Assembly: GCF_048403405.1 (NCBI RefSeq)
Contig: NZ_CP183129.1
Strand: one strand, 5' to 3'
Source: Escherichia coli
Lineage (GTDB): Bacteria; Pseudomonadota; Gammaproteobacteria; Enterobacterales; Enterobacteriaceae
DNA: 64,000 bases
A program made the translations under genes and the position numbers. Positions 13,923 to 25,304 of this stretch are shown piece after piece. Numbering within the stretch: the stretch's first letter is position 1; every line of letters starts with the position of its first letter. The notes below the pieces were generated by a model. It was given only the letters and a program-made list of their open reading frames with translations, was not told the origin of the DNA and made no database searches.

Positions 13923-13938
13923 ACGCAAACGGTTTCGT
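13923..13938 (+). promoter_or_regulatory. PurR operator (pur box) in the purL control region
   Basis: ACGCAAACGGTTTCGT matches the 16-bp pur box palindrome, about 80 bp upstream of the purL ATG. Confidence 0.5.
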
Positions 13939-22531: not shown

Positions 22532-23722
22532 TCACAGCACCTTATGCGGACCAAAGCATTCGTAATGAATGTTTTCCTGCTTCACGCCCAGATCCACTAA
22601 CTGTTTCGCGGCAAACTGCATGAAGCCAACCGGGCCGCAGAGATAGAACTGCATTGTCGGATCGCTGAACGCACCTTCCAGTTTGCTCAAATCCATCAGA
22701 CCTTCGCTATCAAACTGACCTTTAGAGCGATCGGCTTCGCTCGGCTGACGATACCAGGTGTGCGCGGTAAAGCGCGGCAGTGACAGCCCCAGTTCCTTAA
22801 CTTCATCAGCAAAGGCGTGAACATCGCCATTTTCTGCCGCATGGAACCAGTTCACTTGTGCTGTGTGGCCTGCTTTTGCCAGTGTGTCGAGCATTGCCAG
22901 CATTGGCGTTTGGCCGACACCAGCAGAGATTAACGTCACCGGCGTGTCATCTGCGACAGCCATAAAGAAATCACCTGCCGGAGCGACCAGTTTCACGACA
23001 TCGCCAACATTGGCGTGATTGTGCAGCCAGTTGGATACCTGCCCACCCTCTTCGCGTTTCACCGCAATACGATAGCCTTTGCCATCCGGTTTGCGAGTCA
23101 AAGAGTACTGACGAATTTCCTGATGCGGGAAACCTTCCGGCTTCAGCCAGACGCCGAGATATTGCCCTGGACGGTATTCTGCCACTGCGCCACCGTCGAC
23201 CGGCTCCAGTTCGAAGCTGGTGATAAGCGCGCTGCGCGGTGTTTTAGCCACAATGCGGAAATCGCGAGTACCTTCCCAGCCACCGGCTTTGCTGGCGTTT
23301 TCGTTATAGATTTCCGCCTCGCGATTGATAAATACATTAGCCAGTACGCCATAGGCTTTACCCCATGCGTCCAGCACTTCCTGGCCCGGGCTGAACATTT
23401 CGTCCAGCGTCGCCAACAGGTGTTCACCGACAATGTTGTACTGTTCCGGTTTGATCTGGAAACTGGTGTGCTTCTGCGCGATTTTTTCTACCGCTGGCAG
23501 CAGCGCAGGCAGGTTTTCAATATTACTGGCGTAGGCGGCAATGGCGTTAAACAGGGCTTCACGTTGATCGCCATTACGCTGGTTACTCATGTTAAAAATT
23601 TCTTTGAGTTCTGGGTTATGAGTAAACATACGGTCGTAGAAATGGGCGGTTAACTTTGGCCCTGTTTCCACCAGTAAAGGGATGGTGGCTTTTACTGTAG
23701 CGATGGTTTGAGCGTCAAGCAT
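22532..23722 (-). CDS. hmp: flavohemoglobin / nitric oxide dioxygenase (396 aa)
   Basis: N-terminal globin domain followed by FAD- and NAD-binding reductase domains. Confidence 0.95.
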
Positions 23723-23749
23723 ATGGTCTTCCTTTTTTTTGCATCTTAA

Positions 23750-23772
23750 TTGATGTATCTCAAATACATCTT
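23750..23772. promoter_or_regulatory. NsrR-type operator overlapping the hmp promoter
   Basis: Near-palindrome ttgatgtatctcaaatacatctt (read on the hmp strand: AAGATGTATTTGAGATACATCAA), 28 bp upstream of the hmp start. Confidence 0.55.
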
Positions 23773-23916
23773 ATAAAAAATAGCCCTGCAATGTAAATGG
23801 TTCTTTGGTGTTTTTCAGAAAGAATGTGATGAAGTGAAAAATTTGCATCACAAACCTGAAAAGAAATCCGTTTCCGGTTGCAAGCTCTTTATTCTCCAAA
23901 GCCTTGCGCAGCCTGA

Positions 23917-23932
23917 AGGTAATCGTTTGCGT
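23917..23932 (+). promoter_or_regulatory. possible PurR half-operator upstream of glyA
   Basis: aggtaatCGTTTGCGT: the right half matches the pur box, the left half is weak. Confidence 0.3.
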
Positions 23933-24050
23933 AAATTCCTTTGTCAAGACCTGTTATCGCACAATGATTCGGTTATACTGTTCGCCGTTGTCCAACAGGA
24001 CCGCCTATAAAGGCCAAAAATTTTATTGTTAGCTGAGTCAGGAGATGCGG

Positions 24051-25304
24051 ATGTTAAAGCGTGAAATGAACATTGCCGATTATGATGCCGAACTGTGGCA
24101 GGCTATGGAGCAGGAAAAAGTACGTCAGGAAGAGCACATCGAACTGATCGCCTCCGAAAACTACACCAGCCCGCGCGTAATGCAGGCGCAGGGTTCTCAG
24201 CTGACCAACAAATATGCTGAAGGTTATCCGGGCAAACGCTACTACGGCGGTTGCGAGTATGTTGATATCGTTGAACAACTGGCGATCGATCGTGCGAAAG
24301 AACTGTTCGGCGCTGACTACGCTAACGTCCAGCCGCACTCCGGCTCCCAGGCTAACTTTGCGGTGTACACCGCGCTGCTGGAACCAGGCGATACCGTTCT
24401 GGGTATGAACCTGGCGCATGGCGGTCACCTGACTCACGGTTCTCCGGTTAACTTCTCCGGTAAACTGTATAACATCGTTCCTTACGGTATCGATGCTACC
24501 GGTCATATCGACTACGCCGATCTGGAAAAACAAGCCAAAGAACACAAACCGAAAATGATTATCGGTGGCTTCTCTGCATATTCCGGCGTGGTGGACTGGG
24601 CGAAAATGCGTGAAATCGCTGACAGCATCGGTGCTTACCTGTTCGTTGATATGGCGCACGTTGCGGGCCTGGTTGCTGCTGGCGTTTACCCGAACCCAGT
24701 TCCTCATGCTCACGTTGTTACTACCACCACTCACAAAACCCTGGCGGGTCCGCGCGGTGGCCTGATCCTGGCGAAAGGTGGTAGCGAAGAGCTGTACAAA
24801 AAACTGAACTCTGCCGTTTTCCCTGGTGGTCAGGGCGGTCCGTTGATGCACGTAATCGCCGGTAAAGCGGTTGCTCTGAAAGAAGCGATGGAGCCTGAGT
24901 TCAAAACTTACCAGCAGCAGGTCGCGAAAAACGCCAAAGCGATGGTAGAAGTGTTCCTGGAACGCGGCTACAAAGTGGTTTCTGGTGGTACTGATAACCA
25001 CCTGTTCCTGGTTGATCTGGTTGATAAAAACCTGACTGGTAAAGAAGCTGACGCCGCTCTGGGCCGTGCTAACATCACCGTTAACAAAAACAGCGTACCG
25101 AACGATCCGAAGAGCCCGTTTGTGACCTCCGGTATTCGCGTGGGTACTCCGGCGATTACCCGTCGTAGCTTTAAAGAAGCCGAAGCGAAAGAACTGGCTG
25201 GCTGGATGTGTGACGTGCTGGACAGCATCAATGATGAAGCGGTTATTGAGCGCATCAAAGGTAAAGTTCTCGACATCTGTGCACGTTACCCGGTTTACGC
25301 ATAA
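24051..25304 (+). CDS. glyA: serine hydroxymethyltransferase (417 aa)
   Basis: PLP-lysine motif [13 protein letters not shown]; start chosen at [12 protein letters not shown]. Confidence 0.95.

Follow-up and report, generated by a model that had tools for sequence, protein, structure and literature searches.

The spacer between the divergent genes hmp and glyA of Escherichia coli has been studied since the 1990s, and NsrR, FNR, MetR and PurR share this one short region. The closest described counterpart of the locus analysed here is the glyA-hmp intergenic region of E. coli K-12 MG1655 (b2551-b2552, NC_000913.3 2685508-2685834), which has the same locus, gene order and regulatory boxes and is 99% identical. 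For NsrR, the core consensus gATGyAT-N5-ATrCATc has been published, together with the prediction of the hmp site by Rodionov et al. (PMC1274295). NsrR ChIP-seq in strain CFT073 gave a modestly enriched peak (3.8-fold) between glyA and hmp, whose summit is 34 bp away from the start codon of hmp; the peak was assigned to TTGATGTATCTCAAATGCATCTT (PMC5320621). The hmp site of Salmonella, AAGATGCATTTGATATACATCAT, is gel-shifted by NsrR in a NO-sensitive manner, and the 11-mer consensus quoted in the same work is AAGATGTATTT (PMC10783083). Attack of NO on the iron-sulfur cluster frees NsrR (PMC2884951, PMC10783083). Repression of hmp by FNR is cited in two papers (PMC2884951, PMC1274295), and the FNR site has been described as restricted to E. 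coli and Salmonella (PMC1274295). MetR is reported to have two tandem sites in the hmp-glyA spacer (PMC5002191) and, with homocysteine, to activate glyA and repress hmp (PMC5002191, PMC4239095). For PurR, the motif ACGNAAACGTTTGCNT has been reported, and 44% of the PurR motifs are located between the -35 and the -10 (PMC3159470). The glyA PurR site is given as 'confirmed' in RegulonDB, where this term means at least two independent, cross-validated types of strong evidence from among footprinting, site mutation and validated ChIP-chip (PMC3548332).

The divergent locus and its lineage

The window, which is the whole stretch of 64,000 nucleotides analysed here, shows the gene order purL-qseE-qseG-glrR-glnB-hmp<>glyA-yphH-yphG, which is also annotated for K-12 MG1655 and TUM14771, with glnB and glrR upstream and the ROK-family gene yphH downstream of the hmp<>glyA pair. 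The hmp gene, which encodes the NO-inducible flavohemoprotein (NO dioxygenase) of 396 aa, occupies positions 22532..23722 of the minus strand, with its ATG at 23722-23720; its product matches NCBIfam NF009805 at full length with 626 bits, and the gene is annotated as hmp or hmpA in K-12 and TUM14771. The glyA gene, which encodes a serine hydroxymethyltransferase of 417 aa (NCBIfam NF000586, 675 bits), occupies positions 24051..25304 of the plus strand, with the start annotated in K-12 and TUM14771. The initial annotation had placed a 328-bp spacer (23723-24050) between hmp and glyA: its length agrees with the hmp ATG at 23722 and the glyA start at 24051, and both gene identities are borne out by the NCBIfam matches and by the annotation of K-12 and TUM14771. 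The ORF finder chose an in-frame ATG at 24045, which precedes the annotated start of glyA by two codons and would give 419 aa. Since this ATG abuts the glyA Shine-Dalgarno sequence AGGAG (24040..24044, plus strand, 97% conserved), the start at 24051 is the plausible one.

The spacer is found as a single copy in 5425 of 5426 complete E. coli genomes. Three differences separate it from that of K-12: one additional T in the T-run at 23733-40, an A in place of a G at 23766 and a C in place of a T at 23909. The T-run belongs to the 5' leader of hmp (23733-23740) and contains eight T in the window and seven in K-12; homopolymers typically vary in length in this way. Only six complete E. coli genomes (TUM14771, 4621, MS 69-1, OX030728, GN02461 and TUM1226) match the fragment of the window between 12000 and 36000 with 100% identity; for more than 5,400 other E. 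coli genomes, the identity is at most 98.7%. Because this 24-kb stretch matches perfectly in six genomes only, the window comes from a rare and fairly divergent lineage of E. coli. A search of 23400-24400 against Rfam gave no true match; the one miRNA found, at E = 0.72, lies far under the gathering score.

For the phylogenetic footprint, a scan with Hmp gave 80 Enterobacteriaceae loci with 81-98% protein identity. Of these loci plus K-12 and TUM14771, 80 show a divergent glyA, with spacers ranging from 272 to 346 bp. Addition of the window spacer and removal of an identical copy left an alignment set of 80 distinct hmp<>glyA spacers, in which conservation falls in discrete islands. On the hmp side, these are the promoter-side arm of the NsrR site with the -10, the hmp -35 (100%, as TGTAAA) and a block containing both MetR-type boxes. 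On the glyA side, they comprise the hexamers TTGTCA and TATACT, the Shine-Dalgarno sequence of glyA and, with no variation at all, the right half of the PurR box.

The NsrR operator and the predicted hmp promoter

The 23-mer TTGATGTATCTCAAATACATCTT at 23750-23772 is the NsrR operator published for hmp; it is located upstream of the ATG of this gene, at a distance of 27 bp. On the hmp strand (minus) it reads AAGATGTATTT-G-AGATACATCAA, an inverted repeat of 11-1-11 architecture, in keeping with the two inverted AAGATGYATTT arms, 1 bp apart, that define an NsrR site. The site assigned in CFT073, TTGATGTATCTCAAATGCATCTT, is found at the same position and shares 22 of the 23 bases, differing by a G at 23766 where the window has A, and the orthologous site of Salmonella Typhimurium, bound by NsrR and released by NO, differs from that of the window at four positions. 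The promoter-side arm of the window is identical to the 11-mer consensus AAGATGTATTT (11/11), and the distal arm matches it at 8/11. With up to three mismatches to AAGATGYATTTNAAATRCATCTT on either strand, 23750-23772 is the sole match in the 64 kb, and none of 100 shuffles contained one. In a symmetrised matrix, built from the 11-1-11 sites of the CFT073 ChIP-seq with hmp left out, the same 23-mer ranks first in the window with 17.3 bits, the runner-up reaching 12.9 bits; this score was reached by 11 of 500 windows and by 76 of 20000 spacers after shuffling. The claim of an NsrR-type site at this position is therefore upheld by the matrix rank, by the sole consensus match and by the published hmp site. 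Comparison with published binding data also favours it: the NsrR ChIP-seq peak falls in the glyA-hmp spacer, in a strain carrying G at 23766. The summit of that peak is apparently located roughly 70-85 bp from the box, a distance within the resolution of ChIP-seq, although such a peak is no footprint.

The symmetry of the site had been overstated. The palindrome is where it had been placed, but it is not near-perfect, with just 8 of 11 arm pairs complementary; its perfect core is GATGTAT-N5-ATACATC (23752-58 and 23764-70). The window contains 118 23-mers that reach 8/11 pairing, 40% of shuffled spacers hold one, and four other 7-bp inverted repeats are found within the same 470 bp. Since palindromes this good are common in the window and in shuffled spacers, symmetry alone proves nothing, and palindromicity was discarded as evidence for the operator. 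The perfect palindrome of the ytfE operator, AAGATGCATTTAAAATGCATCTT, shares with the hmp site the 11-1-11 architecture and the half-site family, but it has the best score of the regulon (ln P -25.1 versus -18.2 for hmp), whereas the distal arm of hmp, TTGATGTATCT, is degenerate and doubles as an FNR box.

Across the family, the 23-mer is kept with up to three mismatches in 75 of the 80 spacers. The E. coli site has three mismatches to the consensus versus one or two in most relatives, which places it among the weaker members. The segment AAATGCATCTTAT, formed by the promoter-side arm and ATCTTAT, hardly varies among the 80 spacers, and conservation of the site between genera exceeds what a -10 alone would need. 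Two further observations concern its surroundings. A third NsrR-like half-site, AAGATGCAAAA, is located on the minus strand at 23737-23747, between the operator and the Shine-Dalgarno sequence of hmp; it is poorly kept outside Escherichia and is entered as 'hmp (19)' in the CFT073 ChIP-seq table (PMC5320621). The spacer of a Buttiauxella MAG, of 343 bp, shows a tandem duplication, GATGCATTTAATATGCATCTTTTAATGCATCTTAT, in the NsrR region, which creates an extra ATGCATCTT arm.

Position 23766 carries a minority variant of the operator: the window has A where K-12 and CFT073 have G. Read on the hmp strand, position 7 of the half-site on the promoter side is T and not C, so that AAGATGCATTT becomes AAGATGTATTT. 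The 7-bp core is a perfect palindrome because of this change, and the A at 23766 explains why the site looked near-perfect in the initial annotation. In exact counts of 69-mers, the version of the window is found in 133 of 5389 genomes and that of K-12 in 5154 of 5418, so that about 2.5% of the complete genomes of E. coli carry A. The genomes sharing the 69-mer of the window include UTI89, APEC O1, S88, IHE3034 and NU14, which belong to the ST95 extraintestinal-pathogen lineage. Membership of the window in the UTI89/APEC O1 group was considered and ruled out by the identity of at most 98.7% beyond the six matching genomes. The same A is also found in nine other Enterobacteriaceae loci, several of Citrobacter among them.

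The change from G to A is expected to be neutral for hmp control, because the consensus allows either pyrimidine at position 7, given as Y (PMC1274295), and the matrix score shifts by just 0.7 bit between the two bases. The alternative that survives best accepts the region as known but holds that this change measurably alters hmp control in the lineages carrying A, either through NsrR affinity or through promoter strength, the base being located at about -5, in the stretch from the -10 to the start. Its appeal is that the change affects the stronger of the two half-sites, that of the promoter side, which it converts into AAGATGTATTT, and completes the symmetry of the 7-bp core; A is also the minority allele. 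The pyrimidine allowed by the consensus and the small score shift weigh against it, as does the natural occurrence of the same base in the nine other loci, which suggests that it is tolerated, and such an effect is considered rather unlikely.

A candidate hmp promoter was located by a promoter scan. It shows a predicted -10, TAAGAT on the hmp strand (23768..23773, minus), contained in the nearly invariant ATCTTAT of the 80 spacers, and a predicted -35, TTTACA on the hmp strand (23792..23797, minus). The two hexamers are 18 bp apart in the window, with a predicted start near 23761, and 17 or 18 bp apart in 74 of the 76 spacers in which both were found. The published FNR box, which presumably spans about -2 to +11 of hmp, agrees with this start. 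Downstream, a putative Shine-Dalgarno sequence, GGAAG on the hmp strand (23728..23732, minus), has columns conserved at 70-99% in the 80 spacers. The NsrR operator overlaps five of the six bases of the predicted -10 and is centred on the predicted start (about 23761), in agreement with the earlier claim that the palindrome overlaps the hmp promoter region.

An FNR-like box, TTGATGTATCTCAA, which had been absent from the initial annotation, is located at 23750..23763, overlapping the promoter-distal half of the NsrR site and spanning the predicted hmp start. It has one mismatch to TTGAT-N4-ATCAA. This near match and the FNR repression of hmp cited in PMC2884951 and PMC1274295 could be taken to mean that the palindrome is essentially an FNR operator, its likeness to NsrR sites being secondary. 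However, the FNR pattern is only mildly enriched in the window (five matches versus 2.1 expected), and the box is kept with up to one mismatch in just 12 of the 80 spacers, versus 75 for the NsrR 23-mer with up to three. This lineage-restricted retention agrees with the published restriction to E. coli and Salmonella. Furthermore, the FNR box does not include AAATGCATCTT, the arm with the highest conservation, and Rodionov et al. reached the same view against the FNR reading (PMC1274295). A primary FNR operator is thus highly improbable, and the NsrR and FNR sites coexist and are not competing explanations. That the palindrome is a chance feature of an AT-rich promoter, having no regulator of its own, is barely credible and already contradicted: 8/11 palindromes and other 7-bp inverted repeats are common here, as counted above, but the NsrR consensus match is unique in the 64 kb and ranks first with the matrix, the site is conserved across genera beyond the requirement of a -10, and it has an NsrR ChIP-seq peak with a published assignment (PMC5320621).

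The putative MetR boxes, the PurR operator and the predicted glyA promoter

The published MetR sites were placed at two conserved boxes in the middle of the spacer, which had been left without coordinates in the initial annotation. The putative MetR-type box A, TGAAAAATTTGCA (23835..23847), is nearer to hmp, belongs to the conserved block and shows one mismatch to TGAA-N5-TTCA. The putative box B, TGAAAAGAAATCC (23857..23869), is nearer to glyA and 22 bp from box A; its segment CTGAAAAGAAATCC shows almost no variation across the 80 spacers, and the box has two or three mismatches to the MetR consensus. A scan of the window with this consensus gave 26 matches versus 26.7 expected, which is the chance frequency, and the calling of MetR boxes from the pattern alone was discarded for this reason; the placement consequently relies on conservation and on the literature. 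A perfect 7-bp inverted repeat, TGTGATG...CATCACA (23825-23831 and 23846-23852), flanks box A. Its symmetry is probably incidental, since the right arm, GCATCACAAACC, is the only one conserved across species.

The PurR operator of glyA, AGGTAATCGTTTGCGT, is located at 23917..23932, where a PurR half-site had been proposed. The position stands, but the element is a full 16-bp box, with 13 of 16 bases matching ACGCAAACGTTTGCGT and the central CG at 23924-25. The scan of the window with the PurR consensus gave only two matches, the glyA box and the purL operator at 13923-38, and both precede genes of the PurR regulon. However, shuffling gave at least two matches in 19 of 100 windows, so that little weight can be put on the pattern by itself. 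The known purL operator, ACGCAAACGGTTTCGT (13923-13938), acts as an internal positive control of the scan and has in common with the glyA box the 16-bp LacI-family layout and the central CG. The purL box shows two mismatches, precedes the purL start (ATG 14015/14018) by about 80 bp and adjoins a downstream TATAAT. Compared with the pur operators, the two halves of the glyA box are unequal: the right one is perfect and the left one (AGGTAAT) weak. All 80 spacers have the right half, CGTTTGCGTAAA, unchanged, whereas the left half varies (AGGTAAT, AGCCAAT, AGGTAAA and AGGAAAA). The glyA box also differs from the motifs between a -35 and a -10 in its location, as the core promoter is downstream of it. 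A conserved block without assigned regulator, AAAGCCTTGCG (23897-23908), precedes the PurR box.

The glyA promoter had been expected in the same 328-bp spacer, and a candidate -10, TATACT, was found there at 23974..23979 on the plus strand, conserved at 99%. It is most likely the glyA -10, with a predicted start near 23985-23987 and a leader of about 65 nt. The promoter proposed by the scan, TTGTCA-16 bp-AATGAT with the second hexamer at 23963-68, was discarded as the main one: AATGAT varies freely, whereas TATACT is 99% conserved. The hexamer TTGTCA (23941..23946, plus strand) is conserved and -35-like but is 27 bp upstream of the conserved -10, and its role is uncertain. It forms part of a conserved block, TTGTCAAGACCTGTTATC (23941-23962), without assigned regulator, in which it is a good -35-like hexamer.

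Proposed operation of the spacer and possible significance of the variant

The region is read as the E. coli hmp-glyA divergent control region, working as published, with a probability of about 93%. The gene identities, the motifs and their statistics, the conservation, the spacing and the identity with the published locus come from the present analysis; all the elements named in the initial annotation are already in the literature and in RegulonDB. Its proposal that NO-responsive and one-carbon/purine control are packed into one short spacer finds support in the motifs, in their conservation and in published work.

In the proposed mechanism, which takes protein occupancy and regulatory direction from the literature, the spacer would contain two back-to-back sigma-70 promoters with predicted starts about 225 bp apart: that of hmp near 23761, directed leftwards, and that of glyA near 23986, directed rightwards. 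Holo-NsrR, a dimer of the Rrf2 family with an iron-sulfur cluster, would bind the 11-1-11 operator at 23750-23772, and since this operator sits on the hmp -10 and start, bound NsrR would block RNA polymerase sterically. Nitric oxide would nitrosylate the cluster, so that NsrR leaves and hmp is derepressed. The FNR box at 23750-23763, present in Escherichia and its nearest relatives, would use the same DNA to add anaerobic repression, also relieved by NO. The two boxes for MetR, a LysR-type regulator, in the middle of the spacer would serve both genes: with homocysteine, glyA would be activated and hmp held down. PurR with hypoxanthine or guanine would bind 23917-23932, immediately ahead of the core promoter of glyA, and lower the transcription of this gene.

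The sites were located to the base from sequence alone, which makes the locus a positive control for the scan, and the analysis corrects two points of the initial annotation, the quality of the palindrome, which had been overstated, and the PurR element, which had been understated. It also records a polymorphism within the NsrR operator that is shared by common lineages and that may bear on hmp control. If the less likely reading of this polymorphism were true, the variant at 23766 would retune NsrR repression or the basal strength of the hmp promoter, and hence nitric-oxide tolerance, and this would cover both the genomes with the A allele, such as UTI89 and APEC O1, and the rare lineage of the window.
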